Positions 739 through 60,599 of a DNA stretch of 64,000 nt are shown here, in pieces. Each line of letters opens with the position of its first letter. Position 1 is the stretch's first letter. The notes under the pieces were generated by a model. That model worked only from the letters and a program-made list of their open reading frames with translations, did not search any database and was not told the origin of the DNA. Source of the DNA: Clostridia bacterium (lineage in GTDB: Bacteria > Bacillota > Clostridia > UBA1212). The translations under genes were made by a program, and so were the position numbers. The stretch covers positions 4,374 through 68,373 of the forward strand of contig JAFSVU010000020.1 in assembly GCA_017444825.1 (NCBI GenBank), read 5' to 3'.

Positions 739-752
739 TTGTCTTTCCTGCT

Positions 753-1292
753 TTACAGTCCGAAGACTCTTTTTGCTTCGGGGTTCCTTGACGCCATCTC
801 TTTTTTGATCCTCTCGTCGGGATCTATGAAAATGTCGAACTGAACGCCCTCGTCCTTTCCTCTGGCGGTAAAGAAATATATCTCCTCGCTCTCCTCATTA
901 AAGCAGGGGAGCACCTTGTGATTGTTTTCCTTGGCCAGTTTTTCCTTCACCTCCACCTCTTCGGCTTTGGCGATCTTGAACCCCTGGGCGTCTCTGATGT
1001 CGAAGCTCATCACCTTCTTACGCCAGGTCTGGTTCCTTATCTCCGAGATTGTCATCTCGCCCGATACAATAGACAGCTCGTACTCAAGTCTGCTTCTCTT
1101 TATGAGCAATATCGATCCGTAGCATCCGATTCCGGTGATCATGATGACAAGAAGCACGCCGATCAGCTCAAGCAACGCAAAAAGCACCGTGTCTATCGCC
1201 ACAACAGCGACCGCGATCAGTATTATCCAGACCGGGATCATCTTGTTTTTTCTTGCCCTTATAAATGACTCTGTTACGCCATCGTTCATCAT
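753..1292 (-). CDS. Membrane protein with two TM helices and a bacterial PH-like (bPH_2/YdbT-like) domain
   Basis: ORF track 179 aa. Hydrophobic segments IPVWIILIAVAVVAI and LIGVLLVIMITGIG precede a soluble C-terminal domain. Stop 15 nt before the next minus-strand gene. Confidence 0.45.
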   Translation of the reverse strand: MMNDGVTESFIRARKNKMIPVWIILIAVAVVAIDTVLFALLELIGVLLVIMITGIGCYGSILLIKRSRLEYELSIVSGEMTISEIRNQTWRKKVMSFDIRDAQGFKIAKAEEVEVKEKLAKENNHKVLPCFNEESEEIYFFTARGKDEGVQFDIFIDPDERIKKEMASRNPEAKRVFGL

Positions 1293-1384
1293 ATGTCAGT
1301 CTTTTATCCTCATATTATCGGCAAACACCTTCAGACGCTTCCCGCGTCCGAAGGTGTGTCAGTCTAAATTGTAATCTTAAGTAA

Positions 1385-2830
1385 TTACCGAGTCAGCCAG
1401 CTGGCTTGGGCAGTTTCCTGAAGCTTCTGGAGTCCCTCAAGCATGGTCCTCTCGCCGGAGAGATAGCCTTCAACAGCATAGGCGATGTTGATCTCGCCTG
1501 CGGACATCGTAGGCATGAAGCATCCGAGGGAGCCTGCGAAATCCGCGCTTTCAGCAAAGTTCGAGAAAACGGAGGAGTTCTTTCCGGCCTTTGGATACTC
1601 GCGCCAGAATTTCTCCGAGTTTGCTTCCTTGTTAGCGGGAACGGACTGGCCTTGATCCGCATATCCTTCCGCAGCATCTTTTACCGTTGCGTAAAGAGCC
1701 AGATAAGCGCAGGTGCGGTAGAAGTCGTCGTTGTATGTTTCGCTCTTGCCGTGGTTGACCACTGCAAAGCCGTATACATTGGCGGCGATGGCCTGGTGAT
1801 AAATGCCGTTCTCCTCGTAATTGTCATCTTCCCAGCGGGGGAAATGGATGAAATCCCAGGTCCACTTTTCGCCTTCGGACTCCTCGTCCTCGGCCGCCAG
1901 CAGCGCCTCGCTCCATCTTGCGATATCCTCGTGATCCGCAACTATGAATGCGTATTTTGAAATATCATCGGGCTCAATGTCCTTGGAGTTTACGCAGGCA
2001 ACCAGTCCTCTTGCGGGATCGATTATGTCTGCCATATCCTCAAGGCCTTTTACAACGCCGGGATGTGTGAGGTCAAGCTCTTTTACATCTTCGGAGTTTC
2101 CAACGTAGTCATAAATGTCTTGACCGTAGCTTCTTGCGAAAGCGCCCCATATCGCATAGTCGGTATAGTCCATCGCGATCGGAGTCTCAACGCCCTTCTC
2201 CTTCAGCGCCTCTGCGATCTCGACCATGTCGTCCCAGGTCCAGTCGTCGTGGGGGAAAGAGAATCCCGCGTCTCCTATAAGAGAATAGTTGAGGAGCACG
2301 AACTTGTGGTTGTACTCAAGAGCTATCATGTAGACGGATCCGTTGTAGAAGCAGGCTTCGTAAGCCGCGGGAAGCAGGTCCGTTGCGGGGTTGATCTTCT
2401 TATACGTGTCAAAATTCAGGACAGTTCCGATGTACCGGGTCAGATCAATGATCTTGCCCTCCTGGGCATACTTTGCCATTCTCGGCGCATCCAGCAGTAT
2501 AACGTCTCCCGCCTCTGAAAGGTCGTCCGAGTCCATAAGATCGTCCAGTGTCTCAAAGTAGAGCTCCGGGCTTACACGGTCAAGATCGATATTGATCTCA
2601 ACGCTTGGATAGTCGGAAACGAATACCGATTTGTATCTTTCCAGGTTCTGGGCTCTGTCAGCATATAGATATCCTGAAAGTCTGATCTCATTTACAAGAG
2701 CTTCCGGAGTGGGTCTCGGGGTCGCTTTTGGGCCGTCATCGTCCTTTTTCTTCTCGGCGCAACCGAAGAAGCTGAATGTCAGAAGCAATGTCAGAGCGAC
2801 AGCGATAATGATCTTTAAAGCTTTTTTCAT
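1385..2830 (-). CDS. ABC transporter extracellular solute-binding lipoprotein (family 1, carbohydrate-type)
   Basis: Internal start MKKALKIIIAVALTLLLTFSFFGCAEKKK (signal + lipobox) preceded by a perfect RBS (revcomp TAAGGAGGAGGGACAA-ATG). Last gene of the transporter operon. The ORF track's upstream extension overlaps the permease gene and is rejected. Confidence 0.8.
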   Translation of the reverse strand: MKKALKIIIAVALTLLLTFSFFGCAEKKKDDDGPKATPRPTPEALVNEIRLSGYLYADRAQNLERYKSVFVSDYPSVEINIDLDRVSPELYFETLDDLMDSDDLSEAGDVILLDAPRMAKYAQEGKIIDLTRYIGTVLNFDTYKKINPATDLLPAAYEACFYNGSVYMIALEYNHKFVLLNYSLIGDAGFSFPHDDWTWDDMVEIAEALKEKGVETPIAMDYTDYAIWGAFARSYGQDIYDYVGNSEDVKELDLTHPGVVKGLEDMADIIDPARGLVACVNSKDIEPDDISKYAFIVADHEDIARWSEALLAAEDEESEGEKWTWDFIHFPRWEDDNYEENGIYHQAIAANVYGFAVVNHGKSETYNDDFYRTCAYLALYATVKDAAEGYADQGQSVPANKEANSEKFWREYPKAGKNSSVFSNFAESADFAGSLGCFMPTMSAGEINIAYAVEGYLSGERTMLEGLQKLQETAQASWLTR

Positions 2831-2843
2831 TTGTCCCTCCTCC

Positions 2844-3854
2844 TTATTCGATAACACCGATACGCTCGATACCGGCGGCAAGCTGCTTCTGTCCGAAGAT
2901 GTAGACCAGAAGGACCGGGAACATGACCATGAGGCACCCTGCGAAGAGCATCGGTTCCGAGAGAGCTCTGTCAAGCTCCGACATCATCTGGGATGTGGCA
3001 TACTTGTTGAAGTAGTTTCTTATGTTTGCAAGTCTCGGCTGCAGTGTCTGTTTGCCCTCGAGGTACATGTAGGTGGGAGCCTCGTAGTTGTCATTCCAGT
3101 GCCATACGAATGAGAATATGAACACGATGGCTATGGCCGACTTGACCAGAGGCAGCATGATCTGTCCGAAAACTCTGACAGGGCCCGCGCCGTCGATCCT
3201 TGCGGAGTCGTCCAGTACAGGAGGTATTCTCTGGAAGAAGTACATGTAGATCATTACGAACAGCGCGCCGCGGAGACCGAGTCCGAATACCGCAGGCAAC
3301 ACCACAGGTCCCCACGTATTAACAAGGCTCAAAGTCGCCCAGAGTCCGTACGAAGCAAGTATCATAACCTGAGGCGGGATGAGAAGCACCAATACCACCA
3401 GGATGAACACTATGTTCCTGAATCTGAACTTGTAGCGGCCCAGTGAATAACCAATGAGCGCACAGGACAGTGTCTGGAATATTGCCGAAAGCAGCGACGT
3501 TCCGAGGGAGTTAAAGAATGACGGAATGTAGTCGAGAGCCTGGAAGGCTTTCACAAAGTTGTCCCAGTTTACCGTGGTCGGAATGTACTGGACCGTCGGA
3601 TCCATGTAATCCTGCGACGTCATGAGCGACGTACTGAAGATGTAGATAAAGGGCAGAATGAAGAGGAATGCCATCTCAATGAGAACAAAGTAAACAAATA
3701 TTCTCGATATGAAATGCATTATTTTCTTTTTCGCCTTATAACCAAGGTTTTCGTATTTCTTGATGAGGCCTTTTATACCGCCGATGCGTTTCTTTTCGAC
3801 AACACCTGCAGCGTTTTCAGCAGCATTAACGGTTTCTGTTGTCACTTCAGCCAC
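2844..3854 (-). CDS. ABC transporter permease, MalG-like (CUT1 family)
   Basis: 336 aa, 6 TM pattern. EAA-loop-like DDSARIDGAGPVRVFGQIMLPLVKSAIAIVF. Confidence 0.85.
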   Translation of the reverse strand: MAEVTTETVNAAENAAGVVEKKRIGGIKGLIKKYENLGYKAKKKIMHFISRIFVYFVLIEMAFLFILPFIYIFSTSLMTSQDYMDPTVQYIPTTVNWDNFVKAFQALDYIPSFFNSLGTSLLSAIFQTLSCALIGYSLGRYKFRFRNIVFILVVLVLLIPPQVMILASYGLWATLSLVNTWGPVVLPAVFGLGLRGALFVMIYMYFFQRIPPVLDDSARIDGAGPVRVFGQIMLPLVKSAIAIVFIFSFVWHWNDNYEAPTYMYLEGKQTLQPRLANIRNYFNKYATSQMMSELDRALSEPMLFAGCLMVMFPVLLVYIFGQKQLAAGIERIGVIE

Positions 3855-4780
3855 CTCCTCGTAAACAGTATGAATATGAGTATGACCGCGAGCGTGGCAA
3901 GCATGTACAGCCAGCTGAGAGCGGAAGCCTGTCCGTATTTCGTACCCTCCTGAGTCATGCTGTTCATGATGCTCATAACAGGGTTGTCGGAAGCAACGAA
4001 GGAGTCAACAAGAGCATAGATGCAGTTCAGGATCACGAAAGGTGAAATGTAAGGCAGCGTAACGTGCCAAAAACTTTCCCAGGCGGTAGCACCGTCGATC
4101 TCAACGACCTCGTAGAGGATCGCCGGAACACTCTGGAGCGCTGCGAGGAAGATCAGTATCTCAACACTGCTGGCCCACATGATTGAGCCTATGTTGCTCA
4201 TGATCGTTCCGAAGAAAGTATTTATCTCAGCGGAGCCCGTGGTGATGGAGCTGAATACGCTCATGTTTCCTACGCCATCCGCAAAGAGGTAAGTCATAAT
4301 GGTTCCGGCAAGGATGACCGGGATGAAGAATATGACACGGAACACTGTCCTTCCCGGGAACTCCTGCTTAAGGAGCACAGCCACGAACAGCGAGAACGCA
4401 ACGATGACAGGCACCTTAATGAGAGACATACCGAAGGACTTAAACACCGTTTCACCTACGGACGGATCCTGGATGACCTTAACGTAGTTGTTGATGCCAA
4501 CGAACGTACTGGTTCCCTGGAATCCGTAGAGGTCTGTAAGAACCGTCTGGAAGAAGCTGATCCTTACGGACAGCACCAGCGGCACCACTATGAAACCGAG
4601 AAAACCTATCAGCCAGGGGATCGAGAAAACGAATCCTTCAAGGTTGCGTCTTTTCTCAAAAGACATCAGAGTGTATTTTTGAGAATGCGCAAGCTTCTTT
4701 TTATACTTAATCTGTTTCAAATCAACCGGCCTCCCTTCTTTATCCGACATTAACGGTCTCGAATGCGCCGTTTGTGACAA
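3842..4780 (-). CDS. ABC transporter permease, MalF/UgpA-like (CUT1 family)
   Basis: 312 aa with N-terminal basic region then TM helices. Overlaps the downstream permease by 13 nt (translational coupling). Confidence 0.85.
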   Translation of the reverse strand: MSQTAHSRPLMSDKEGRPVDLKQIKYKKKLAHSQKYTLMSFEKRRNLEGFVFSIPWLIGFLGFIVVPLVLSVRISFFQTVLTDLYGFQGTSTFVGINNYVKVIQDPSVGETVFKSFGMSLIKVPVIVAFSLFVAVLLKQEFPGRTVFRVIFFIPVILAGTIMTYLFADGVGNMSVFSSITTGSAEINTFFGTIMSNIGSIMWASSVEILIFLAALQSVPAILYEVVEIDGATAWESFWHVTLPYISPFVILNCIYALVDSFVASDNPVMSIMNSMTQEGTKYGQASALSWLYMLATLAVILIFILFTRRWLK

Positions 4781-7469
4781 GGCCTATGCCAAGAGCCGGA
4801 ACAACTCCGTCCTCGGTCTCAAAAGCCTCATCTCCGTAGTTAACATAAACCTTAATGCCGTTGCTGTACTCGGTGCAGTAAACATTACCGGATCTTGCTC
4901 CGTCAACGCAACGGTGGCCGGTGATCTCTGCGGCAGCAACAGGGGCGAGCACTTTGTCGGCTATTACGTAGCCCTTCTGAATATCCTTCGAAAGTTCTCC
5001 GTACTGTGCCTTGAAAAGTGAATTGTAGTTTGTGTATCTGAGTTCCTCGGTGGGCTCATGGGTCACTTCGTATGTGAGAAATGCGCCGTACTCAATGGAT
5101 CTCAGGATGGTCTTGGTGTAGTCGGAGCTTCTGTTGACGGCAGATGAATAGTAATCAACCAGTCCGTGATACACGATCTCAAGAAGCGGCACAGACTCAT
5201 CGATGGAGAAGAGTCTCGAGGTCTCCGTAGGAATGTCGAGGATGTTGTCGGCGACTGAAGCCGCATACTCATAGCCATAGTATACCGATACGGTGTCGAA
5301 TACCTCTTTGTACTTCACGATCCAACTGCGGTAGTATTCCAGTCCCTGCTGGCGGAGAAGAGCATTCTCCTTGTTATAGTCGGTATAAAGCAGATTGCCA
5401 AGCTGCTGGAGGTCAAGGTTCTTAAAGCCGAGCTTTGAGAGGTTCTTGATGTCGTTGCTCAGCATCTTGTTGTTGTAGTAGCGGGGGCTCATGTAGTAAT
5501 AGTCCGAATCCCTTCTGAACACGCCCGCGGTGCTGACCAGCTTATAGTTAACGTAGAACGTACCGGGATTCTTTACGACTGCCTGCCTGAGACTTGCGCC
5601 CTTCGGATTTCCGTAGAGTATGAGCATGTTCACGTCAGCAGAGACGGTGGCATCGCTCTCCGCAGCATAGGAGTTGAGATCCTTCAGACCGCCGGAGCCG
5701 CCCATAGCCAGACCGATGTTGTATTTCCGCGTAATGTTTCCGTAGTAGCCGTTCTGCTGCCAGCCCAGCACGGAGTAGCGGATCTTCGGCAATACCGTCT
5801 TAGTGTCGCCGATAATATCCTTTATCTGACCGAAAGTGGTCATGACCTTATAAGTCGGGAATATGGATACCGAAGCCCTGTTTATGTCAGCCACAAAGAC
5901 CTTGAGGTTGAGCACGTCAGGATTCTTGTTCTTGTTCTCCTCAGTGTTTACATCCACCTCGGAATTCTTCAGATAATCAAGGGTCTTCTTATCGTTGCCC
6001 CACTTCTCAATGATAAAGTTTCTGATGTTCTTGGCCACATCCACGTATGAGTAGTCCTTTGAGCTGTCGATCTCAAACATGTATTTCATGGTGAAATCGC
6101 CAATGCCGGACGGAACCTCGAGGAATGTGTACTCGGAACCGCCGTTGCTGAGCTTCGCCTGGTAGAACTCTCTCCACTTGAAGTAATATGAAATGTAGTA
6201 GAACGGGAGGCTCTTCGTGCCGGGCTTGCCCATGAGGATGGAAGCATTGGCTTCGCTCTCGGTAGCAAAGCATGTGAGCATCACTTCGTCGTCGATCGTG
6301 CCGAAAGCGGGAAGCGATATGGTCTCATTGGTCATATTCGGGTAGTTGAACACGTCGAATATGTCGTCGTAGCCGTAAATGCGCTTCTGGTACTCGTCGT
6401 ATGTGGAAATACGGGGCACGTCAAAATATGTGAGACCGCCTGAGCCGTCGGGAGTCACGTAATAACCGCTGTCGCCCTGTCTCTTTGCGCTGATAAAGGG
6501 CAGGCAGGCTATGGAAGCAACTCTCGGCATCTCGTCGGAATCATTGTCGTAGTCCTTTTCCTCCTTGTCCTCATGGACATCCTTCTTGGGAACGTTCACC
6601 ACGAGGTCGCCGTTTTCATCAAGGTAGAACTCAACGCCAATGCTGAACTCATAATTGACCTTGTAGGTCTCCGCCATGTTGTTGGTCTTGGTGATCTCAA
6701 CGGGGATGGTGTATTTAACCTTGAAGCCGTTTTCGATCATGTAATACTCGATGGTAAGCTTATCGTTCTGGTTGATACCCCAGTCCTTTCCTCCGTCAAG
6801 GTTGGAAGCGGTCCAGCCGAGTCTTACAAGAGACGAAATGATGTCATGGTTCTTCTTGTACTTCGGGTAGGGATCGTCTTTGGTGGCGGGATCCATCTCG
6901 CTTTCAAGCGGCGCTGGCCAGCTTCTGATCTCTTTTCTGTCGCCTTTTGCATTGGTTATGTCAAGGATCAGCAGCTGATCGGCAGGCGAGAACTTAAGGA
7001 TTGTCTCACCGCCCTGGCTGTTTTTGACCTTTGCGATCTCGGTCATGCCGGCATCCAGATCAATGCCGGCGCCCACAGGCTTGGGATCGTTCATGACGAT
7101 ATAGTCGCGAAGCCATTTGATGTAGCCGACGTTTCCGCCGAATATTACTTTGTATACTACGAAGACAGCCACGAGGACCACTATCACCGAAATGGTGGTG
7201 GCGATGATCCTGTTTCTCTTCTTTTTCTTTCTCTGCTGCTCGAGGAACCTTTCGGCCTCCTCTTTGTCGACGTAGACATTTCTCTTTACATTTTCCTCGT
7301 CCAGAGACTTGGAGAACAGAGAGGGCTTGTTCTCTTCGGGATTTTCGGTGCCCTGAGTTTTGTCGACAGGATTGGTTTCTGCGGCATTTTCCGGGGTCGT
7401 TCCCTCTATAGTCGTGTTGACTTGAGCAGCGTCTTTATCAGTTTCGGTCTTCTTTATTTTCTTAGACAA
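4740..7469 (-). CDS. Large type-II membrane protein, glycoside-hydrolase-like extracellular domain. Uncharacterised family, paralogous to CDS 41723-43579.
   Basis: 909 aa. TTG start at 7469 with AAAGGAG RBS. About 90 aa of charged N-terminus, then TM IIATTISVIVVLVAVFVVY, then a large ectodomain. Shares GG.SGGLKDL / LGWQQNGYYG / PLLEIVYHG motifs with the cytoplasmic paralog LDGWGKMGYD / GGAEGMKDL / PLFTLVYHE. Confidence 0.6.
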   Translation of the reverse strand: MSKKIKKTETDKDAAQVNTTIEGTTPENAAETNPVDKTQGTENPEENKPSLFSKSLDEENVKRNVYVDKEEAERFLEQQRKKKKRNRIIATTISVIVVLVAVFVVYKVIFGGNVGYIKWLRDYIVMNDPKPVGAGIDLDAGMTEIAKVKNSQGGETILKFSPADQLLILDITNAKGDRKEIRSWPAPLESEMDPATKDDPYPKYKKNHDIISSLVRLGWTASNLDGGKDWGINQNDKLTIEYYMIENGFKVKYTIPVEITKTNNMAETYKVNYEFSIGVEFYLDENGDLVVNVPKKDVHEDKEEKDYDNDSDEMPRVASIACLPFISAKRQGDSGYYVTPDGSGGLTYFDVPRISTYDEYQKRIYGYDDIFDVFNYPNMTNETISLPAFGTIDDEVMLTCFATESEANASILMGKPGTKSLPFYYISYYFKWREFYQAKLSNGGSEYTFLEVPSGIGDFTMKYMFEIDSSKDYSYVDVAKNIRNFIIEKWGNDKKTLDYLKNSEVDVNTEENKNKNPDVLNLKVFVADINRASVSIFPTYKVMTTFGQIKDIIGDTKTVLPKIRYSVLGWQQNGYYGNITRKYNIGLAMGGSGGLKDLNSYAAESDATVSADVNMLILYGNPKGASLRQAVVKNPGTFYVNYKLVSTAGVFRRDSDYYYMSPRYYNNKMLSNDIKNLSKLGFKNLDLQQLGNLLYTDYNKENALLRQQGLEYYRSWIVKYKEVFDTVSVYYGYEYAASVADNILDIPTETSRLFSIDESVPLLEIVYHGLVDYYSSAVNRSSDYTKTILRSIEYGAFLTYEVTHEPTEELRYTNYNSLFKAQYGELSKDIQKGYVIADKVLAPVAAAEITGHRCVDGARSGNVYCTEYSNGIKVYVNYGDEAFETEDGVVPALGIGLVTNGAFETVNVG

Positions 7470-9591
7470 GATAGCTCAACTCCTTTGCAAACTGAACGAT
7501 GAAATCGATAAGCTGTGATGTAAGTCCTCTCACGATCATGAAGAGAACCACAACAGCGGCAACACCTGCGGCCGTAAGCACGAATACCAGCAGCGCCTTA
7601 AGCGGGTTGAATCCGTGTACGCCCTTCATGCACATGAATACGAGGAAAATGACCCATGCGTATGAGATGTATTGTACAATGTTGTAAAGAGGCATTTCCT
7701 GGAGCGTCAGCACCTGGGTGATGATCGCCAAAGGAAGCTGGATGAGTATGAAAGGCACGTGGCAATATGCTCCGCCGATCACAACGTCCCTGAATCTGCC
7801 TTCGCCGTAAAGGATAGTCGTAACACCGTAGTTGACAGTGCAGATGACCGCCCAGGGAAGGATACAGAACAGCAGTTCAAATCCCCAGTCAATGAATTCC
7901 AGAGACTCACCGTTTCTGTAAATGAAGCTCGTGGCGTACAGTGACAGGATATGTGTCACGATGTAGATCACCATGACTATCACCGCATCAAGGTAGGTTC
8001 CCTTGTTCTCATATCTGATATCTTCAAATCCGTCCACCGGATGGATCGAGATATGCACCATATTCTTGAGAAAGGCCACGGTCTTTGTGAAGAAGTTGAC
8101 CTTCGGCTCGCCCTTCGGATGCTTCATCCTGTAGCGCTTCATGATGGACTTAAATACCACGAGACCTACGAGAAGCACCACGAGCACGGTGGCGATGATC
8201 GAGAAGTACTCGCCAAGGAAGTCGGAGCGGAGCTCTTCAAACGCTGTGGACGCACCTGTCGCATCCTCGGCATCGTAGAAATACTGAAGCGCTTCACTGT
8301 ATCTTTCTTCTCTCCAGTAGATCTGACCGATGGACTGAAGCGCAAGAACGTAGAAGTTGTCTTCGCGCTTTACTTCCGTCCACTGAACGAAAGCATTGTC
8401 GGTTCCGGTGGGGTCGTCCGGGTTGTCAGCGGCTTCATATTTTCCGTCGCTGTAATTCTTATTGGCTTTGTGAACAAGTCTTGCAAACTCGGTCTGTTCG
8501 AATACGTAAACGGTGTTGTTCTGACCGTTGAGAACGTACAATCTGCCGTTTTCATCCACCTCAATGGATCTCGGGAGGGAGAACTGGCCGTAGCCCGTAC
8601 CTACCGCACCGAAAGCGAACAGGTTTCTGCCCCACTCATCATATTCATAAACACGGCCGTACGTGGCGTCAATGATGTACGTGTTAAGGTCCTTGTCAAC
8701 GGTGACGTCGATAAAGTTCTGAAGGTCGGCTGAGTTTCTCAAAAGACCTATATCCGAGAAATCCTTTCCGGCGTAAAGAACGTCCGAACCTGCGGGGTTT
8801 ATCTTACGCATCTGAGCACTGGTGTAACCGGTCGTAGTGGCGTAGATATAACCGTCATGTATAAATATATTGTTAAAAGTATAAGGGAGCGTAACAACGG
8901 TTCCTTTTCTGGACTCTCTTGACCAGAGGAATCTCGCGACCATCTCCCAGAATGTGAGAGCAACCTTGTTTGTTCCGAAATAGTTTCTGAACTCACCGTC
9001 GGAGGAGAGCATCAGAATACCGTTCGAGTCGCCAACGGAGCAAACGTAGATGTATCCCTTCTCATCTTTTACGACGCGCTGGGGCTGGTAGTTAAAATCA
9101 TCCACCAGTATGTCACTGGACGGAGTCGGATATGCGTAACGGAAATTGCCGTACTTCGTGAACTCCACAAGTCGCTTGTTACCGTAGTCGGCTACGAGAA
9201 TGGTTCCGTCTTTGTCAACGAACACGCAGGTCGGCTTGCTGAGCTTGCTTCCGTCCTCCTCGAAGCCTGTGATCTCGAAATCGAAAGTGTAGTCACTCTT
9301 CAGAATAACGATCCTGTTGTTTCCCGTATCGGCGATATAGATCTTTCCGTCGGGGCCGATGAAAATGTCCTCAGGGTCGAGGAGTTTTCCGTGCTCCTTG
9401 TCGGGGAAGTCGATTACCTTGCTGATTTGATAAGCCTCCGGTGTGGGAAGGTTCCAGCTGTAATCGTCAGAGGATGACATGAAGTAGTTTGAGTACGGAG
9501 TCGCGGCACTGACAGGCGCTATCGTGAAAAGTGAGAGCACCAACGCCAATGCGACCGAAAGACACACAAATTTTGAAATGTTTCTTCTCAT
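7462..9591 (-). CDS. Secreted NHL-repeat beta-propeller protein fused to a C-terminal multipass (Yip1-like) membrane domain
   Basis: 709 aa. Signal peptide ...APVSAATP. NHL-type repeats IYIADTGNNRIVIL, LVADYGNKRLVEF, YVLNGQNNTVYVF. The C-terminal ~270 aa contain 5-6 hydrophobic helices. Confidence 0.7.
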   Translation of the reverse strand: MRRNISKFVCLSVALALVLSLFTIAPVSAATPYSNYFMSSSDDYSWNLPTPEAYQISKVIDFPDKEHGKLLDPEDIFIGPDGKIYIADTGNNRIVILKSDYTFDFEITGFEEDGSKLSKPTCVFVDKDGTILVADYGNKRLVEFTKYGNFRYAYPTPSSDILVDDFNYQPQRVVKDEKGYIYVCSVGDSNGILMLSSDGEFRNYFGTNKVALTFWEMVARFLWSRESRKGTVVTLPYTFNNIFIHDGYIYATTTGYTSAQMRKINPAGSDVLYAGKDFSDIGLLRNSADLQNFIDVTVDKDLNTYIIDATYGRVYEYDEWGRNLFAFGAVGTGYGQFSLPRSIEVDENGRLYVLNGQNNTVYVFEQTEFARLVHKANKNYSDGKYEAADNPDDPTGTDNAFVQWTEVKREDNFYVLALQSIGQIYWREERYSEALQYFYDAEDATGASTAFEELRSDFLGEYFSIIATVLVVLLVGLVVFKSIMKRYRMKHPKGEPKVNFFTKTVAFLKNMVHISIHPVDGFEDIRYENKGTYLDAVIVMVIYIVTHILSLYATSFIYRNGESLEFIDWGFELLFCILPWAVICTVNYGVTTILYGEGRFRDVVIGGAYCHVPFILIQLPLAIITQVLTLQEMPLYNIVQYISYAWVIFLVFMCMKGVHGFNPLKALLVFVLTAAGVAAVVVLFMIVRGLTSQLIDFIVQFAKELSYLV

Positions 9592-9603
9592 CCGGCGCCT
9601 CCT

Positions 9604-10473
9604 TTACTTGATACCCGAGTGGGCCATCGTATCCATAACGCTCGACTGGGAGACGATGAATACGATAATACTCGGAACAGTCATGATGAGTGAGGCTGCG
9701 GCATTAGCACCTTGTCTTGCAAGACCACCCTGCAGGGTGCTCATGAAGAATGCAAATGTACGGAGCTGCTCCTCATAAATGTAGGTCGTGGAAGCCGAGC
9801 TGTCATTCCAGATGCCCGGGAACGTCAGGATGACGCAGGTCGCCTGGGCATTTCTTAAGAGAGGCAAAGCTATCTTTGTGTACAGCTGCCATTCGGAGGC
9901 ACCGTCTATCTTTCCGGCTTCAAATATGGAATCCGGCACCTGGTCAAGGAACTGCTTCAAGAGGAACATACACGTGCAGTTTGCAAGTCCCGGGATGATA
10001 TATACCAGATAGGTATTGTCCAGATGAAGACCCGTAACGATTATGTAGGACGGGATGGCCGCAGCACCGGATATGATAAGGAGCGCGTTAGTAACGAGCT
10101 TGAAAAGTCCCTTCGCACCGGGGAATTTGTGCTTTGAAAGCGGGTAGCAGGCCATCGTTCCGACGACTATCATTGCGAAAATGTACAGCACCGTGATAAG
10201 CACAGTGTTGAACAGGTATCTTGTGAACGGAACCATCGTGTTTGAAGTAATGCTCACAAGGTCGGTGAAATTCTTGAGTGTCGGGTTGGACACGTAGAAT
10301 CTCGGCGGATAGAGGAACAGCTCTTCGGCAGGCTTGAATGCCGTAACCACGAGGTAGATCAGAGGCAGAAAGGATACAATGCCCGCAAATCCAAGTAAGA
10401 TCGAAATTACGGTCGGAGCATATTCTCTGCGTTTCTTGGCTTTCTTTAAATAATCAACGTCTACTTGAAACAC
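9604..10473 (-). CDS. ABC transporter permease, MalG-like (second pair)
   Basis: 289 aa. EAA-like EAGKIDGASEWQLYTKIALPLL. Confidence 0.85.
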   Translation of the reverse strand: MFQVDVDYLKKAKKRREYAPTVISILLGFAGIVSFLPLIYLVVTAFKPAEELFLYPPRFYVSNPTLKNFTDLVSITSNTMVPFTRYLFNTVLITVLYIFAMIVVGTMACYPLSKHKFPGAKGLFKLVTNALLIISGAAAIPSYIIVTGLHLDNTYLVYIIPGLANCTCMFLLKQFLDQVPDSIFEAGKIDGASEWQLYTKIALPLLRNAQATCVILTFPGIWNDSSASTTYIYEEQLRTFAFFMSTLQGGLARQGANAAASLIMTVPSIIVFIVSQSSVMDTMAHSGIK

Positions 10474-10479
10474 CTGTCA

Positions 10480-11484
10480 TCACCCCTTATCACTTAACAG
10501 CCTGAAGGCAAGTCTTCCTATACCGAGAACCAATGCGGAGAGCACGACGGCGATGGCCGAAGCATAACCGACCTCAAAACGCTGTCCGGCATAGTCTCCA
10601 AGGTGAAGCATGATTGTAAGACCGGCATCCTCAGGGCTCGGGTGTCCCACAAGGGCCTGGCTTATTCCGCCTACCGTAAACGAACCGGTTATCGTAAGGA
10701 CCGCGGAGAAGAGCAGCTGAGGCATCGTCTGCGGTATGTCAATGTAGATAAGTCTCTGGAATCTTGATGTGATACCGTCGACCATGGCCGCGTCGTAGAG
10801 TTCCTTATCAACGTTGGTGAATCCGGCGACGAAAGAAAGGAATCCGGTACCCAGTGAAGACCACAGCGAGACTATGATGATTACAGGCATGATCCAGTTG
10901 ACATTCTGAAGGAACTGTATAGGCTCCGTGATCAGGCCCGCATTGAGCAAAGCTGAGTTTATGTAACCCTGGCTGTCGTTTGCGAAAACCACCAGCCATA
11001 CGACGCTGAGCGCCACGCCGCCGGTAAGGGAAGGCGCGTAGAAGGCCAGTGTGTAGAGCGGCTTCAGCCTCTTCGGAACCTGGTTGATGAACCAGGCGAA
11101 GAAGTACGACGCAATGTAGGAAACAGGTCCGACTATGATCGCGTAGTACAGAGTGTTGCTGAAGGCCTTCAGGAACAGGCTGTCCTCAACGAAGAGGTAG
11201 AGGTAGTTGTCCCAGAAGATGAACCTCGGAAGGCTCAGCGCGTTGAAGTAGAAGAAGCTCAGCGCAGCCGAAGCGATAAGAGGCAACAGCGTGAATGTGA
11301 TGAAGCAGATAAAGAAGGGAGCGATCAGCGCATACGACATCTTGAACTGGCCCATCTCATGGAGCTTAAAGCGGAAATACGATTTCGTATAATCCTTCTT
11401 TTTCTTTCCGGTGGCCAATTCCTGATTGTCGGAATCGACTACCACAGAAGGCTCATTTTTGAGTTTCTTTTCTTTTTTGCTCAT
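10480..11484 (-). CDS. ABC transporter permease, MalF-like (second pair)
   Basis: 334 aa. YDAAMVDGITSRFQRLIYIDIP EAA-like loop. Long basic N-terminus. Confidence 0.85.
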   Translation of the reverse strand: MSKKEKKLKNEPSVVVDSDNQELATGKKKKDYTKSYFRFKLHEMGQFKMSYALIAPFFICFITFTLLPLIASAALSFFYFNALSLPRFIFWDNYLYLFVEDSLFLKAFSNTLYYAIIVGPVSYIASYFFAWFINQVPKRLKPLYTLAFYAPSLTGGVALSVVWLVVFANDSQGYINSALLNAGLITEPIQFLQNVNWIMPVIIIVSLWSSLGTGFLSFVAGFTNVDKELYDAAMVDGITSRFQRLIYIDIPQTMPQLLFSAVLTITGSFTVGGISQALVGHPSPEDAGLTIMLHLGDYAGQRFEVGYASAIAVVLSALVLGIGRLAFRLLSDKG

Positions 11485-11485
11485 A

Positions 11486-14400
11486 TCAGCCCTCCCCCTT
11501 TCTAGTCGACCAGATTATCGAGAAGTCTTCCTTTATAAGGTTACCCTCGCTGTCAAACGCATCATTGAAGAATTCTTTCTGTTTACGTTTCATTTCTTTG
11601 TTGATCTCCCTGACGGCATCCTCGAGAGCGATCCTGATGTTGTCGCCCTGAAGAACGGACTGGTTGAGCGCTGTCAGGAGGTAACGGTCTGTGTAGTATC
11701 CTCCGAGAACCACGGGGTATTCGGTGAAGTACTTCCACTGCTCGTTGATGACTTCCAGCTCATCGTCGCTGTATGCCATGTTGTTTATGGCAAGCTTGTT
11801 GGCTGTGTTCCATCTCGAAGCAACGCCGAACGTGGCCTCGACTTCCTGAGCATACTTGACCTGGATCTCCTCGCTCATCCACCACTTGACGAATTCCCAG
11901 CCTTCGGCTGCGTGGTTTCTGTCGCCCTCGTTTCTGATGAGGATGCAGGTGGTTCCGCTTCCGCCCATGCTTCTGTCAACCGTGCCGTCCTCTTTGAGAT
12001 GTCCCGGAACAGGCGACATAGCCCATTTACCGTTGATCTCAGGAGCGGAATATTTGAGCTGGCAGTAGAGGCCCATATCCGCAACTCCTATCGGCATGTC
12101 GCCGAGCTTGAACTTCATGTAGAAGTTGGATGCGTAAGGAATATTGTATTTATTGTAAAGGTTGGCGTACTCGTAGAAAGCATCGTATGCTTCTGCCGAA
12201 TCCAGGTTGGAGTGGAGACCGTCCGCGTCGTAAACCGACGCGCCGTTCTGGTAAAGGAACGGGTACATGTTTCCGACACCGTAGTTATAGCAGAAATCCA
12301 TGCTCTTTTCCTGGAGTCTCGGAAGTATCTCGTATACCTCTTCCCAGGTGTCCGGAGGATTCTCTATACCCAGTTCCTCCATGATATCCGTTCTGTAGAA
12401 GAGGGCCACCCAGTTCTGGGTCTCCGGCACCGTGTAATACATTCCGCGGTATCTGGAAAGCGTGTAGTTTCCGGGGAGGAAGTTCTCATCGAAATATGTG
12501 TAGAAATCGGTGTTTTCATCCTCCACGCCGTCTCCGTCGAGGTCGTTGTACGCCACCAGAGCGCCTCTGGCGGCATATTCGACAGGCGACCTGTTGCCTA
12601 CCGAGATGGCCACGTCAGGAGCGGTCTTCGTAACATAGCGCAGCATGACGAGGCCTTCGACATTCTGTACCATGTTAACGTTTACTCTGATATATTTCTC
12701 TTCGGTGACCCCGTTAACCGTCACTGCGCGTTTCACCGGTGTGAAGTCCTCGGCGATGAGGGCTCTCAGCATCTCGACGTATTCACGTCCTCTGCCGATA
12801 TAGACCTCGATCTCCTCGGTCTGGTTTTTAGAGGGGTCTTCTCTTGCGCCGACAACGGAGTAATCCTTTACCCAGGAGTCTCCGAATTTGATGGCGCCTA
12901 CGTAGAAGGACTGGAAGCCGTTACTGCGGCATTTATCATAGTTGAACTCGCCGCCGTGAATGACCATGTAATCGATGGCGATGGGCTGCTCGGTGATATT
13001 CTGAAGGGTTGTTGAAAGGCTCGAAAGAGCGTTTGAAATTTCGTTCAGGGATGCGGGAATGTCCTCAAGGCCCTCCGTACCTCTGGCAAGTCTCTCGAAG
13101 AGAGCTTTTGCCACGGCAACGGACGATCCGTAATAAGGGGTGACATCGCCGTTGGCGGCCTTGATCTCGTTAAATATCCTCTCGAAGGTGTCGCGGTAGT
13201 TTGCGATCTCTTCTTCGATTCCCATGATGTATTTATCGAGGTCCCAGTCTCTGTTCTTATCAACGCTGTATCCGCCGGTGGAGCTTCTCGTCGCGCCTGT
13301 GATGTTAACGACCATGCTGATAAGCTTTGAGATCGAATCCATGGACTCTTTGAGACTCTGGATGGCCTTTCTCAGGGGGCCGACCTTCGATGTGATGCTT
13401 ATGGTGTGGGTGCCCTTTGTGAGGTAGAAGTAATAAGGCTGCTGATTTTCGTCTATCAGCGAGGAACCTGCCCATCCGTCTGTGTACGGGAAGCAGTACT
13501 CCTCCATCTGTTCGAAGGGGATCTCGCCGTCAATGTTGATCTCGGCGTACACCGCGATATCCGTCAGTGTATTCTGGTATCTGAAACCGATCTGGTACCA
13601 GCCGTCTTTCTCTACGTTAAAGCTCCAGGAGGCACCGTCGCCGCCGTTGGCCCATCTGTCGCCGCCGAAATAGTTATATCTTGTGACCTTGTAGGATGCG
13701 GGTGATGAAGCATAGTCGCCGTCCCACTCGCTTCTGATGCTGATGGTGTTCTTTGTGTCGGGTACCTCAAACTCTACCTTGGTAAGGCCATCCTTAACGA
13801 TAGCGCTCTCGGAGAAGGAGTTCCGGACCTTGTACTCTTCATAAGTGAGAGACTTGAGAGGAGCCTTCAGTGTGATGGTTTTGATAATAACGGGCTCTCT
13901 TCCGAAGGTGAGCGATATAGTCCTCGGTTTGTCTGCAGATGCAAGGGAGCTGGCGTTGATCAGGAACCTGTAGGGGTTTCTGTAAAGACCTTCGGGATTC
14001 TGAAGAGTGGTCGTCTGCCACATGAAAAGTTCCTGCTGCTGGTTGCGGATCTCGTTTCCTCCGAAATCAAGGCTCTTTTTATCGAAGAATCCGTAAACAC
14101 GCTTAAGCTCGATGCTGGCGGCTTCCTTGAAGGGGTACTTGTTATCTACACTCAGACGGACCAGGGTGTTGTTAGATCTGTTCTCCGGGAGAAAATACTC
14201 AACGTCCATTGAGTAAAGAGCGGTCTCGGGCACATCAGGTTTGTAGATAAACGTGATCTCCTCGATGGCGCTGGAGGAACCGTCACCCGCATCGTTTCTG
14301 CCGAAATATATGGCGGAGGGGTCTGCCTTGATGGTTCCGGAGGCCTCGGTGAACCTGTCTTTCTGATTCGAAGCCGATGTGTAACCGTTCTCGTCTCTGC

Positions 14401-14911
14401 CCTCTTCGATGTCGACCTTGTAGGTAAAACCGTAATCCTCGTCAAAGCTGATGTGATTTACGATCCTCTCGATCTTCCTGACGACCTCCTCGGTGGCAAA
14501 AGAGAATTCTCCGTTAAGGACCTTCCCGTAATCGTAGTTCTTACCGCGGTAGGAGACGTTTTTGTATTCACCGTTATCGTCGCGGTAGAGGTAAAGTGTG
14601 TCGCCGCTGTCGATCTTAAAGCTGATGCCGTAAAAATCTGTAGCGTTAATGACAATATCTTCACCCGCGTAGGACTCGTATTTCTTGTCACCGTACTTCT
14701 TCAGTACCTTTCCGTACTCGAGGAGACTGTTATCGGATCTCTCCTCATAATCGGCAAAGGGGTTGAAGTCAAGAATATCGTCGTTTTCGACTTTGAACTG
14801 CTTGACATCCGCCTTGCGGCCGCCATAGATAAAGAGAGCCGCAATAATGGCAACGACAAGCACTGCAAAAATCACCAAAACGATAATTTTACGCTTTTGT
14901 TTCTTGTCCAT
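11486..14911 (-). CDS. Giant membrane-anchored solute-binding protein. N-terminal TM, ~650-aa extension with a beta-sandwich CBM-like segment, and a C-terminal family-1 SBP domain.
   Basis: 1141 aa. MDKKQKRKIIVLVIFAVLVVAIIAALFIYGG anchor. Middle segment NGGDGASWSFNVEKDGWYQIGFRYQN is CBM-like. The C-terminal ~450 aa (WVALFYRTDIMEELGI...PDTWEEVYEI...) resemble extracellular solute-binding proteins. First gene of the operon. Confidence 0.7.
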   Translation of the reverse strand: MDKKQKRKIIVLVIFAVLVVAIIAALFIYGGRKADVKQFKVENDDILDFNPFADYEERSDNSLLEYGKVLKKYGDKKYESYAGEDIVINATDFYGISFKIDSGDTLYLYRDDNGEYKNVSYRGKNYDYGKVLNGEFSFATEEVVRKIERIVNHISFDEDYGFTYKVDIEEGRDENGYTSASNQKDRFTEASGTIKADPSAIYFGRNDAGDGSSSAIEEITFIYKPDVPETALYSMDVEYFLPENRSNNTLVRLSVDNKYPFKEAASIELKRVYGFFDKKSLDFGGNEIRNQQQELFMWQTTTLQNPEGLYRNPYRFLINASSLASADKPRTISLTFGREPVIIKTITLKAPLKSLTYEEYKVRNSFSESAIVKDGLTKVEFEVPDTKNTISIRSEWDGDYASSPASYKVTRYNYFGGDRWANGGDGASWSFNVEKDGWYQIGFRYQNTLTDIAVYAEINIDGEIPFEQMEEYCFPYTDGWAGSSLIDENQQPYYFYLTKGTHTISITSKVGPLRKAIQSLKESMDSISKLISMVVNITGATRSSTGGYSVDKNRDWDLDKYIMGIEEEIANYRDTFERIFNEIKAANGDVTPYYGSSVAVAKALFERLARGTEGLEDIPASLNEISNALSSLSTTLQNITEQPIAIDYMVIHGGEFNYDKCRSNGFQSFYVGAIKFGDSWVKDYSVVGAREDPSKNQTEEIEVYIGRGREYVEMLRALIAEDFTPVKRAVTVNGVTEEKYIRVNVNMVQNVEGLVMLRYVTKTAPDVAISVGNRSPVEYAARGALVAYNDLDGDGVEDENTDFYTYFDENFLPGNYTLSRYRGMYYTVPETQNWVALFYRTDIMEELGIENPPDTWEEVYEILPRLQEKSMDFCYNYGVGNMYPFLYQNGASVYDADGLHSNLDSAEAYDAFYEYANLYNKYNIPYASNFYMKFKLGDMPIGVADMGLYCQLKYSAPEINGKWAMSPVPGHLKEDGTVDRSMGGSGTTCILIRNEGDRNHAAEGWEFVKWWMSEEIQVKYAQEVEATFGVASRWNTANKLAINNMAYSDDELEVINEQWKYFTEYPVVLGGYYTDRYLLTALNQSVLQGDNIRIALEDAVREINKEMKRKQKEFFNDAFDSEGNLIKEDFSIIWSTRKGEG

Positions 14912-15030
14912 AAACTCAACCTTTCAGCACCCGTTTCGGATGAAAAAGCCCGCAGTTTCCGTTTACTCTCGTAACGTCGCCGGAAGCCGTTTCCCGATAA
15001 GCGAGTCATTTATACAAAATAAACAAATTT

Positions 15031-15059
15031 ATTATAAGTTTTTTGGTTATTTGTGTCAA
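15031..15059 (-). promoter_or_regulatory. Sigma-A-type promoter for the ABC uptake operon (revcomp TTGACA-17-TATAAT)
   Basis: Minus strand reads TTGACAcaaataaccaaaaaactTATAAT. It sits ~110 nt upstream of the 14911 start codon. Confidence 0.5.
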
Positions 15060-15227
15060 TGATTATTTTGGCCGGAGGAGGCTCTGTTTTCGGGTCATCT
15101 CCTTGTAATAATATAATAAAGTCCGGAGGCCTGAACCGGCCGAACCTTGACTGAAGATTGATTTGTTTTATGCTCCGCAAAGAGAAGCTCTTTATGCGTT
15201 CCCTGTTGCACCCCCGAGAACGCAGGA

Positions 15228-15272
15228 AAGACCCCGCGGACGTCTCCTTCCGGAGCACCGCGGGGTCTGCCC
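15228..15272 (-). terminator. Stem-loop downstream of the DHHW gene
   Basis: GACCCCGCGG...CCGCGGGGTC 10-bp inverted repeat just after the stop at 15293. Confidence 0.4.
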
Positions 15273-15292
15273 TTCATGTTCGTTATAAGCTT

Positions 15293-17104
15293 TTATTTCA
15301 GCGGCAGGCTCGACAGGTAATCGTAGCACATGCGCGCACAGTTCACGTTATCCGAGTCGTAACGCTCGACTGCCATGATGAGCAGGAGATCTCCCGCTTT
15401 CAGTTCAGCCAGTGCGTCCTTTATGACGGTCTTTCCGGAGGAAACGACAGCTGCGCCGTCCCCTTCCTTCACGTAGTTTGATACCGTGTTGAAGTCGCCT
15501 CTGTGGGTCACGGTGACCTTGCAGTAGTCCTTGGCGAGATAAGGTGCGATCGCGTGTCTGAACGAATCTCCAATTATCAGGGCCTTCTGCTCCGTTGGCG
15601 CGTCGGACGTATACACTCTGAGCTCCGTGTTGGGAGTCTCATTGCCGCCGGTTACCGTGTTGGAATAGTATGCCGCGACTTTTGATTTGACCCACGGCTT
15701 ATAGTTCACGGAATAGCCGGTGTAATGTGTCGCGGGCCCTACGCCCAGGTTCACAAGGTCCCCGCCCTTGTAATCGCCCTCGGTGACTTCCACGTTCTGA
15801 AGACCGGTCACGGGGAGTCCTATCGCAGAATAGACCTGCATGGCGCCGACGAAGCCTCCAACGGAATTCCAGTGGGTGTCCTGCTGAAGGTATGTCTCGT
15901 AGAGTATCTTTGCGGATTTCATCTGGGTAAGGGGATACACAAACTTTATCGGACTGCCCTGCTGCTTCAGATATTCCACAAACTTTGGTTCGCGCTTCGC
16001 GGAATCGTCCACGATGGTAACGCCCGAAGGCATATACTCTGCGTAGACCTGCTCCTTGTTCGGGGGAATGAGGAACACGACCGAAATGCCTCTTTTCTCG
16101 CATTCGTAGTGAATAAGTTCATACGTATCCTTCCACGATTTGGCATCGGCGGCGGAGAGCACGTTGTCCCCCTGGAAATAGCCCACGCTGTCGTTTCCCG
16201 AATAGAAATACCAGTCGTGAAGGCCCTTGAAGCCTGCGCCGCTGTAAGAGATGGGAGATTTCCCGTCGTAGAATCCTTTAACAGTGGTCCGGAGGACGAT
16301 GTTGCTGACATCCACATCCGAGCACATGGAGCACTTTTTCATGACGTAGCCGTCGTGGGCGTAAGAAGCGTTCTGGCTTTTTACCACCGTATAAATATGG
16401 CCCGGCGCTTTGATGACCTCGTATTTATATTCGCCGCAGTATTCGCACTGATAGCGGGCTTCTCCGTCTTTCGTGCAGGACGACGTTTTAATGACCGTAT
16501 AGTTCACGAAATGGTGAGGACAGGGAGTGGGAGTGGGTGGCTCTGTCGCTTCCGGAGACTCAGTCTCCTCCGGGGATTCGGTCTCTTCCGGCTCCGGTGT
16601 GTCAGTCGCCTCCGGTGTCTCCGTGGGTGTCTCCGTGGGAGCTTCCGTGGGCTCTTCTGTAGGGGCTTCGGTGGGGTCACCGAAAATACCGCCGAAATCC
16701 GGCGTAGGCGTCGGCTCCGGGGTCGGGGTCGGTGTCTGATCGGGTGCCAAAGTTACCTCCGGGGTCGCCGTGGGCTCGGGGGTCGCATTGGCGAGTACTA
16801 TCGCCCTGTAGATCGGGTTTTTGATCCTCTCCTCGTAAAACTTGCTCATTCCGTTGTCCATGTCCTTCATGACCTGAATGTTCCAGTTCCTGAGCGGGGC
16901 ATGGTCTTTTATAAAGCTGTCGACTTTGGCAAAGTAGTCGTTGGAATATTCCGACGGAAAACCCGCAAGCTCCCTGATCTCGCCGCCCTCTTCGTCCTGG
17001 ACAACGTCAAGTCCCGCGATTCCCAGGGCCCAGGGTACGGCTATGGCAAGCGCAAACAGGCTCACCGCCACTATGGATATGATGAAATTCTTCACCTGCC
17101 GCAC
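15293..17104 (-). CDS. DHHW-family (AlgJ/AlgX/DltD-like) protein with N-terminal TM, Pro/Thr/Glu linker and an inserted Cys-rich module
   Basis: 603 aa. DTHWN motif in ETYLQQDTHWNSVGG. Linker TPEPTATPEV...PTPTP. Cys-rich block CPHHF...CTKDGEARYQCEYCGEY...CSMCSD. Lies immediately downstream of the MBOAT gene. Confidence 0.75.
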   Translation of the reverse strand: MRQVKNFIISIVAVSLFALAIAVPWALGIAGLDVVQDEEGGEIRELAGFPSEYSNDYFAKVDSFIKDHAPLRNWNIQVMKDMDNGMSKFYEERIKNPIYRAIVLANATPEPTATPEVTLAPDQTPTPTPEPTPTPDFGGIFGDPTEAPTEEPTEAPTETPTETPEATDTPEPEETESPEETESPEATEPPTPTPCPHHFVNYTVIKTSSCTKDGEARYQCEYCGEYKYEVIKAPGHIYTVVKSQNASYAHDGYVMKKCSMCSDVDVSNIVLRTTVKGFYDGKSPISYSGAGFKGLHDWYFYSGNDSVGYFQGDNVLSAADAKSWKDTYELIHYECEKRGISVVFLIPPNKEQVYAEYMPSGVTIVDDSAKREPKFVEYLKQQGSPIKFVYPLTQMKSAKILYETYLQQDTHWNSVGGFVGAMQVYSAIGLPVTGLQNVEVTEGDYKGGDLVNLGVGPATHYTGYSVNYKPWVKSKVAAYYSNTVTGGNETPNTELRVYTSDAPTEQKALIIGDSFRHAIAPYLAKDYCKVTVTHRGDFNTVSNYVKEGDGAAVVSSGKTVIKDALAELKAGDLLLIMAVERYDSDNVNCARMCYDYLSSLPLK

Positions 17105-17110
17105 CTCCCG

Positions 17111-26094: not shown

Positions 26095-26123
26095 TTGACA
26101 ATATAACGGTTTGCCGTTATAAT
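26095..26123 (+). promoter_or_regulatory. Promoter TTGACA-17-TATAAT for the XRE regulator gene
   Basis: ttgacaatataacggtttgccgttataat, followed by AGGTGA RBS and ATG 26146. Confidence 0.5.
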
Positions 26124-26145
26124 TGTTGGGAGGCAGGTGAATACC

Positions 26146-41709: not shown

Positions 41710-41722
41710 AGGAGATAAACCA

Positions 41723-60541: not shown

Positions 60542-60599
60542 GCCTTGACAACAAAATCAAAAACGCAAAACACGTTTTTAAATCGCGGAGGCATTATAA

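Follow-up and report, generated by a model that had tools for sequence, protein, structure and literature searches.

An eight-gene operon on the minus strand

We focused on a candidate glycan uptake locus in a 64,000-nucleotide stretch of DNA, referred to here as the window, from a Clostridia metagenome-assembled genome (MAG) of ruminant gut origin (assembly GCA_017444825.1, contig JAFSVU010000020.1, positions 4,374 to 68,373). According to the list of open reading frames (ORFs), positions 1385-14911 of the window hold eight co-directional ORFs, all on the minus strand. In the direction of transcription, they encode a binding protein of 1,141 amino acids (bigSBP, 11486..14911; assigned from Pfam SBP_bac_8, its topology and an AlphaFold2 model); a MalF/UgpA-type permease with six transmembrane helices and the EAA loop DAAMVDG (F1, 10480..11484) and a MalG/UgpE-type permease with the EAA loop EAGKIDGA (G1, 9604..10473), both assigned with Pfam and NCBIfam; a 709-amino-acid NHL-Yip1 fusion protein (7462..9591; Pfam NHL and Yip1); a 909-amino-acid DUF5696 protein (4740..7469; Pfam PF18952, E value of 2e-117); second MalF- and MalG-type permeases with the EAA loops EVVEIDGA (F2, 3842..4720; Pfam) and DSARIDGA (G2, 2844..3845; Pfam); and a lipoprotein CUT1 binding protein with the lipobox FFGC (lipoSBP, 1385..2830; SBP_bac_1/8). 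The program-made ORF starts were too long for F2, G2 and lipoSBP, and we revised them on the basis of gene calls on identical metagenomic contigs and of ribosome-binding sites. The likely start of F2 is a TTG at 4720, preceded by the ribosome-binding site GAAGGGAGG, that of G2 is a GTG at 3845 overlapping the F2 stop codon, and that of lipoSBP lies at 2830, giving the N terminus MKKALK.

A preliminary description of this DNA, made from the sequence alone, had listed a fusion of carbohydrate-binding module (CBM) and substrate-binding protein (SBP), two CUT1 permease pairs, a glycoside hydrolase (GH)-like type II membrane protein and an NHL/Yip1 fusion, and these protein types are upheld by the Pfam and fold evidence given below. 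Its count of ten genes is not borne out, since the interval holds eight, as does that description's own list; the two genes that follow the operon, coding for a DUF6106 protein and a transglutaminase-like protein, may be the source of the higher figure. The minimal gaps and overlapping genes that it reported are confirmed by the lengths of the junctions, which are, in operon order, gaps of 1, 6 and 12 nucleotides, an 8-nucleotide overlap, a 19-nucleotide gap, a 4-nucleotide overlap and a 13-nucleotide gap.

Upstream of bigSBP, a motif scan located a σ70-type promoter, TTGACA-17-TATAAT, with a 12/12 match on the minus strand (15031..15059), where the preliminary description had placed it at ∼15.05 kb. 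This is the sole 12/12 match within positions 1-17500, and none of 100 shuffles of the window contains any such site. The promoter is kept in 16 orthologous loci, 7 of them close and 9 belonging to a more distant clade, even though the intergenic DNA around it has diverged. The −10 element is immediately followed by an operator-like block, AATTTGTTTATTTTGTATAAA (15009..15029, minus strand), in which TTGTwTA occurs twice. The block is unique in the window and nearly invariant in the 7 close loci despite diverged flanks, and the second clade carries a related TTTTGTWTA..TTTG..CAAA block at the equivalent position. Judging from this conservation, the block is probably the operator for a regulator encoded elsewhere; no regulator gene adjoins the window operon. 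The search for other signals was negative: positions 1-16000 gave no Rfam match, the fold of the 5′ untranslated region was not significant (z score of −1.5), and no cre-like site was found near the promoter, with window-wide counts of such sites not above chance.

Both ends of the unit are marked by hairpins on the minus strand. The upstream one (15229..15268; −44.4 kcal/mol, z score of −4.5) is followed by UCUUUCC and ends the preceding unit of an MBOAT and an AlgX-like gene, thereby marking the upstream operon boundary. The downstream one (1325..1357; −26.2 kcal/mol, z score of −4.7) is a terminator-like, GC-rich hairpin of 14 bp that starts 28 nucleotides past the last stop codon and has a weak U-tract. 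For each of the two, 0 of 200 shuffled sequences folded equally well. Internal promoters or terminators, which the preliminary description had considered as a way in which the locus might fall apart into separate units, were represented between these ends by weak matches only, at a frequency not above that of shuffled sequence. Taken together, these data support a single operon, running from promoter to hairpin with translationally coupled genes.

Two further observations concern the surroundings of these signals. The DUF6106 gene (753-1292, minus strand) lies 3′ of the operon in all close relatives, and the transglutaminase-like gene comes next in identical contigs. A second perfect TTGACA-17-TATAAT promoter, for which the chance expectation in the window is none, is found at 26095-26123 on the plus strand, just 5′ of an ORF for 192 amino acids (26137-26715).

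A fixed gene order with two permease pairs

To assess the conservation of the arrangement, we scanned one genome per species, which yielded 530 loci with a DUF5696 relative (at least 530 species genomes), and we fetched the best 80 of these and searched their ORFs with the window proteins. The complete order bigSBP-F1-G1-NHL-Yip1-DUF5696-F2-G2 is present in 65 of the 80 loci, and the remaining 15 are cut by contig ends (one of them with a split F1) and are all consistent with it, so that no exception was found. The loci span Oscillospirales-type Clostridia, Lachnospiraceae, many Paenibacillus, Bacillus caseinilyticus and a Limnochordaceae MAG, and even a DUF5696 homologue as distant as an E value of 3e-6 still lies inside the same cassette. 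The preliminary description had regarded the duplicated permease pairs with inserted genes as an atypical composite; the invariant order across classes of Bacillota refutes this, and, as judged from gene order, the arrangement is a fixed conserved cassette and not a one-off composite.

All four permeases score above the PF00528 (BPD_transp_1) cutoff, each has an EAA-type coupling loop, and their best NCBIfam matches are UgpA/MalF-like and UgpE/MalG-like. Within the window, F1 and F2 are 22% identical and G1 and G2 are 24% identical, and because of this low identity we take F1G1 and F2G2 to be ancient paralogues. Positional orthologues were found for F1 in 72 loci and for G1 in 74 loci. Across loci, cognate permeases match each other with bit scores of at least 112 and noncognate ones with at most 84, indicating strict positional orthology. 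One could argue that two permease pairs with two binding proteins, whose permeases share only 22 to 24% identity, are two independent sugar ABC (ATP-binding cassette) operons that came to lie side by side with unrelated genes. Such an origin should not yield an identical order in 65 complete loci and a consistent one in 15 truncated loci across Clostridia, Bacilli and Limnochordia, nor strict positional orthology, coding regions that overlap or lie 19 nucleotides or less apart, and a single conserved promoter. We therefore give chance juxtaposition next to no credence and regard it as excluded by the synteny.

With two BPD_transp_1 subunits bearing EAA loops in each pair and SBP_bac_1/8 (MalE-like) binding proteins, the locus has the parts of a CUT1-type importer. 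Given their EAA loops, all four permeases should couple to an ABC ATPase. No ABC ATPase gene is present in the operon, in agreement with the preliminary description, and the single protein with Walker A and LSGG motifs in the 64-kb window (∼35.4-36.1 kb) was taken, without a family search, to be FtsE on account of its motifs and location. CUT1 systems in Bacillota commonly borrow an MsmX/MsmK-type ATPase. Supply in trans is supported by 2 of 76 related loci (L041 and L058), where bigSBP is immediately preceded by a co-directional gene for an ABC ATPase. These genes lie at 1226-2440 in L041 and at 1361-2491 in L058; both loci are from Paenibacillus, and one of the proteins has an MsmX-like GPSGCGKST Walker A motif.

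The first of the two binding proteins, bigSBP, has a single N-terminal transmembrane anchor (residues 9-27, by hydrophobicity analysis), and its sole strong Pfam match is SBP_bac_8 at residues 761-1022. Its AlphaFold2 model, with a predicted local distance difference test (pLDDT) score of 87, consists of the transmembrane helix, a small α/β domain (∼60-200), two β-sandwiches (219-349 and 376-509), a helical bundle (511-640) and a MalE-like binding domain (644-1114). The Foldseek matches of the C-terminal domain are CUT1 binding proteins for oligosaccharides, and the best profile match in the PDB is Lin1841, a binder of β-1,2-glucooligosaccharides (E value of 5e-30). The second β-sandwich is CBM35/Golvesin_C-like. 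This similarity is weak in the window protein itself (E value of 8e-4) and clearer in relatives, CBM_35 being found in 14 of 33 and Golvesin_C in 18 of 33; the profile search of the PDB also matches the CBM35 region of a cycloisomaltooligosaccharide glucanotransferase (CITase) with an E value of 3e-8. Model, Foldseek and profile matches thus support the earlier reading of this protein as a giant membrane-anchored CBM-SBP fusion. The second binding protein, lipoSBP, belongs to SBP_bac_1/8 and sits after G2 in the clades of the window. In most loci, an ordinary lipoprotein binding protein adjoins the cassette: the close clades have the window type, and 37 further loci have one from another family.

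Compared with CUT1 importers (TC 3.A.1.1) of Gram-positive bacteria that share an MsmX/MsmK ATPase, the cassette has the same permeases with EAA loops, the same MalE-like binding proteins and an operon without an ATPase gene. It differs from them by its two fixed permease pairs, by an SBP of ∼1,100 amino acids with CBM35-like and helical-bundle parts, and by the interleaved NHL, Yip1 and DUF5696 modules. We regard it as a CUT1 sugar uptake locus of an apparently new form, in which the layout of two translocators is fixed and three accessory modules are conserved. The preliminary description had raised the possibility that homologous loci are already characterized; we found no paper that names DUF5696/PF18952 or describes the cassette in a search that fell short of most subscription journals, so that a prior description is possible.

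The NHL-Yip1 and DUF5696 proteins

The NHL-Yip1 protein exceeds the Pfam cutoffs for both of its parts (NHL, 55 bits versus 20; Yip1 [PF04893], 39.4 bits versus 28.6, residues 514-683). It is composed of a signal peptide, an NHL propeller (∼50-370), a TPR-like hairpin (∼383-440), a transmembrane helix and a Yip1 domain with five transmembrane helices; at residues 383-439, the family profile matches TPR consensus proteins. In the PDB, the same profile matches the Pizza6 designs (E value of 1e-75), which derive from the PknD propeller, and the PknD sensor propeller itself (1rwi; E value of 4e-38), in four to six stretches, and the propeller is apparently six-bladed on these matches. By sequence profile, this extracellular NHL sensor of M. 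tuberculosis PknD is the closest natural relative of the cassette propeller. The latter is attached to a Yip1 membrane domain and not to a kinase, and it comes without a signaling output domain. NHL and Yip1 are encoded by one gene in 32 loci and by two adjacent genes in 33, which argues that the two modules work together.

A bacterial precedent for a scaffolding role of NHL-Yip1 may be seen, by analogy, in YknW, the one Yip1 protein of bacteria that has been studied, which modulates the assembly of the YknXYZ ABC transporter (PMC4887032). The YknWXYZ locus of Bacillus and the cassette both encode a Yip1 membrane protein beside an ABC transporter (PMC4887032), whereas YknYZ is a MacB-type exporter with a membrane fusion protein and the cassette encodes type I importers with an NHL propeller on or next to Yip1. 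A paper on archaeal Yip1 proteins was set aside as a parallel, as the cassettes described there are unrelated.

The DUF5696 protein matches PF18952 with 393.6 bits (cutoff of 25.6 bits) over model positions 7-610 of 612. A disordered cytoplasmic tail (residues 1-87) is followed by a single transmembrane anchor (88-106) and an ectodomain, for which the AlphaFold2 model (pLDDT score of 78, predicted template modeling score of 0.81) shows an N-terminal β-sandwich, a (β/α)8 barrel and a C-terminal β domain. The top Foldseek matches of this model are the two GH129 enzymes of known structure, the 3,6-anhydro-d-galactosidase ZgGH129 (5opq; E value of 2.5e-29, target-normalized template modeling score of 0.71) and the α-N-acetylgalactosaminidase NagBb (5wzn; E value of ∼1e-22), followed by GH101, a GH36-type galactosaminidase, GH97, GH36 and GH31-like proteins. 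Searching the PDB with the family profile matched GH129 chains collinearly but weakly, at an E value of 1e-5 and in fragments. When 75 DUF5696 proteins were aligned by hhalign with NagBb and the GH129 protein encoded in the window, the probability was 99.7% with an E value of 2e-24 over 611 columns at ∼13% identity; the NagBb sequence was rebuilt for this purpose from its alignment to the window's own GH129 gene. Because of this result, we consider it secure that DUF5696 is a distant full-length homologue in the GH129/GH101 superfamily. The anchor at residues 88-106 and the GH129-like fold and profile also bear out the earlier view of this protein as a GH-like type II membrane protein. With GH129 (5WZN and 5OPQ) and GH101, the family shares the three-domain architecture, the barrel fold and collinear profile homology. 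It is set apart by its low identity, its membrane anchor and long cytoplasmic tail, its constant location inside an ABC cassette and its own motifs PDGSGG and DExxPF. Among 1.84 billion representative proteins, 3,831 DUF5696 clusters were retrieved by profile at an E value of at most 1e-30, and the family thus comprises ∼3,800 clusters at 50% identity.

The genuine GH129 gene of the window (41600-43579, plus strand) codes for a homologue of NagBb (5WZN; E value of 4e-121) that has no transmembrane anchor and also scores on the Pfam models of DUF5696 and GH101. Its neighbors are a gene for GH123 on one side and one for an APH-family (NahK-like) kinase on the other, the latter followed by a PfkB kinase gene (40066-41709, 43566-44693 and 44846-45757, all on the plus strand). 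Two long antisense ORFs in this cluster (41897-43567 and 43554-44690) have no family match and look spurious.

Genomic neighborhoods and a proposed role of the cassette

In the clade of the window, an MBOAT and AlgX-like pair lies upstream of the cassette, and genes for the DUF6106 and transglutaminase-like proteins, IMPDH and GreA lie downstream. In the window, this pair (15293-18622, minus strand) consists of an MBOAT protein of 503 amino acids and then an AlgX-like SGNH protein of 603 amino acids that contains a long linker rich in Pro, Thr and Glu as well as a Cys-rich segment, and it is predicted to act in polysaccharide O-acylation; in the closest relatives, too, the cassette is immediately preceded by the AlgX-like gene. 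In the next clade, a murD-like gene takes the position directly upstream. Among more distantly related taxa, the same-strand downstream genes of 32 de-duplicated distant loci mostly code for carbohydrate-active enzymes (CAZymes), with GH10 in 5 of the 32 and GH30, GH3, GH31, GH29, GH28, GH32, GH38, GH5 and GH43 as other families; GH67 and GH106 genes neighbor the cassette in other taxa. One widespread gut locus of the Lachnospiraceae type has the order GH43, cassette, SBP-GH10-GH3-GH67, which is a typical glucuronoxylan set, and AraC-type regulators flank 17 distant loci. This distribution suggests that the cassette is a portable uptake core in varied polysaccharide loci, with xylan-related partners being the commonest.

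By the definition attributed to Sheridan and colleagues (2016), a polysaccharide utilization locus of Gram-positive bacteria combines a degradative enzyme with a transporter and a regulator. The window locus has a carbohydrate transporter, its sole enzyme candidate is the GH129-like DUF5696 protein, and a co-located regulator is missing. A mucin or GalNAc substrate, as the preliminary description had suggested from the NahK cluster at 40-45 kb, has no support. The GH123-GH129-NahK-like cluster there was rejected as evidence, since it lies on the opposite strand at a distance of 25 kb and since the cassette lies beside xylanase genes in soil Paenibacillus; in other taxa, the neighbors of the cassette are GH10, GH30, GH3, GH43, GH67 and the like. 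Other CAZyme-like genes of the window, none of which adjoins the operon, code for a GH36/melibiase-like protein (19700-21811, minus strand), an α-l-rhamnosidase of the six-hairpin (GH78-like) type (29456-32053, plus strand) and a protein that matches GH99 weakly, below the threshold (37375-39255, minus strand). At the far end of the window, a tRNA-His gene (55932-56008, plus strand) precedes a stretch in which long ORFs are scarce (56-64 kb). This stretch, with its genes for an AAA_21/AbiEii-like protein (60545-61753) and a DUF6273 protein (62329-63423), may be an integrated element at the tRNA.

Our reading of the region, to which we assign a probability of roughly 60%, is that of a self-contained glycan capture-and-import module, encoded by a single operon and widespread in Bacillota. 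F1G1 and F2G2 would form two type I, CUT1-like translocators, both powered by a shared MsmX/MsmK-type ATPase encoded elsewhere. The CBM35-like sandwiches of bigSBP would keep a polymer or a large oligosaccharide close to the membrane, and its MalE-like domain would load one of the translocators, presumably F1G1 as the adjacent pair, with lipoSBP serving the other. The DUF5696 protein would trim the captured glycan at the cell surface, and the NHL propeller on its Yip1 domain would bind ligand or partners and organize the assembly, parallel to YknW. Transcription would start from the one consensus promoter with its operator-like block, under a regulator not encoded nearby. Gene content, topology signals, folds, homology, the conserved order, the promoter and the hairpins are shown by the present data, and from them we infer the pairing of binding proteins and permeases, the hydrolytic activity, the substrate and the formation of a complex, which the preliminary description had likewise suggested as a capture and processing complex coupled to import.

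Several points weigh against the proposed module. As the hairpin at 1325..1357 lacks a good U-tract, read-through into the DUF6106 gene is possible. The neighbors in the clade of the window are housekeeping and envelope genes and not catabolic ones, the NHL propeller finds its best relatives among sensor or binding domains and not among enzymes, and the wide variation of flanking GH families is a poor fit to one fixed enzymatic specificity of DUF5696. In the hhalign alignment, D435 and E478 of NagBb, which we take to be its nucleophile and its acid/base (their positions being verified in the sequence), fall on Q688 and Y731 in the window protein, two nonconserved positions. E734, at the end of barrel strand 5, was considered as a GH129-type acid/base but was rejected as a family feature, being acidic in just 30 of the 75 sequences, all from the clades of the window. 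The GH129 catalytic residues can therefore not be mapped with confidence in DUF5696, and a hydrolase activity is not secured.

Several of these findings also underlie the main rival explanation, in which the cassette is a noncatalytic platform, namely, a machine for docking and import that is indifferent to the substrate. In this view, DUF5696 would be a pseudoglycosidase or a glycan-binding lid and NHL-Yip1 a scaffold, and species-variable secreted enzymes would depolymerize the substrate. The position of the GH129 acid/base is not conserved and the nucleophile aligns to no conserved acid, the NHL domain resembles the PknD sensor propeller, flanking GH families vary, and bigSBP has CBM-like modules of its own, all of which agree with this view. 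What speaks against a noncatalytic DUF5696 is its set of near-invariant polar residues, which look like those of an active site. D341 (75/75, in the PDGSGG motif) and D368 (72/75) lie in the N-terminal domain; D697 (67/75, after strand 4) and E793 (73/75) lie near the top of the barrel, as does the DExxPF motif after strand 6 with D757 (70/75) and E758 (57/75). H768, N779 and W570 are conserved as well, and many polar residues are kept after barrel strands. D697 and D757, after strands 4 and 6, are 60 residues apart, a spacing that we take to resemble that of the nucleophile and acid/base pair of GH36. We consider a purely noncatalytic platform unlikely, although it is the strongest contender.

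The upstream neighbors bring in a weaker rival, according to which the cassette serves to salvage or remodel surface polysaccharide of the cell itself, i.e., a secondary wall polymer or exopolysaccharide, and not to take up dietary glycans. Consistent with such envelope turnover, the cassette directly follows the pair of the MBOAT and AlgX-like O-acetyltransferase genes in the clade of the window and a murD-like gene in the next clade, and both clades have neither a catabolic GH gene nor a regulator gene nearby. However, a terminator hairpin and a separate promoter divide the cassette from the MBOAT unit, the neighbor sets differ between the clades, as if the adjacency were coincidental, and the neighbors in Paenibacillus and Lachnospiraceae are plant polysaccharide hydrolases and AraC-type regulators. 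We thus hold envelope-glycan turnover to be improbable.

A bolder version of the glycan capture-and-import module, which we put forward as a doubtful proposition, would unite the seven core proteins in one obligate surface supercomplex, as a Gram-positive counterpart of the utilisome of Bacteroidota. Here, Yip1 would bridge the two importers, NHL and bigSBP would hold the polymer, and DUF5696 would cut it into two classes of products, one for each translocator. As functional analogues only, the Sus-like systems of Bacteroidota share with the cassette an uptake core and surface glycan-binding or enzyme-like proteins among variable CAZyme genes. There is no homology between them: the cassette has ABC importers at one membrane, in contrast to the TonB-dependent SusC/SusD, and its complex is a conjecture. 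If the supercomplex existed, first functions could be assigned to the NHL-Yip1 proteins of bacteria as well as to a protein family with over 3,800 sequence clusters, and a new and widespread architecture for glycan uptake would be defined.

Gram-positive bacteria of the gut and soil are major degraders of plant and host glycans, and their uptake systems are usually described as simple, with one binding protein and two permeases combined with a shared ATPase. The present module is much larger, and three of its components have no known function, so that one characterized example would annotate thousands of genes. Several culturable Paenibacillus species carry the cassette, among them P. amylolyticus (27C64), P. 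barcinonensis and P. polysaccharolyticus, and in several taxa it sits in loci for xylan-type and other polysaccharides. Once characterized, the module could show how Gram-positive bacteria couple glycan processing at the cell surface to import.

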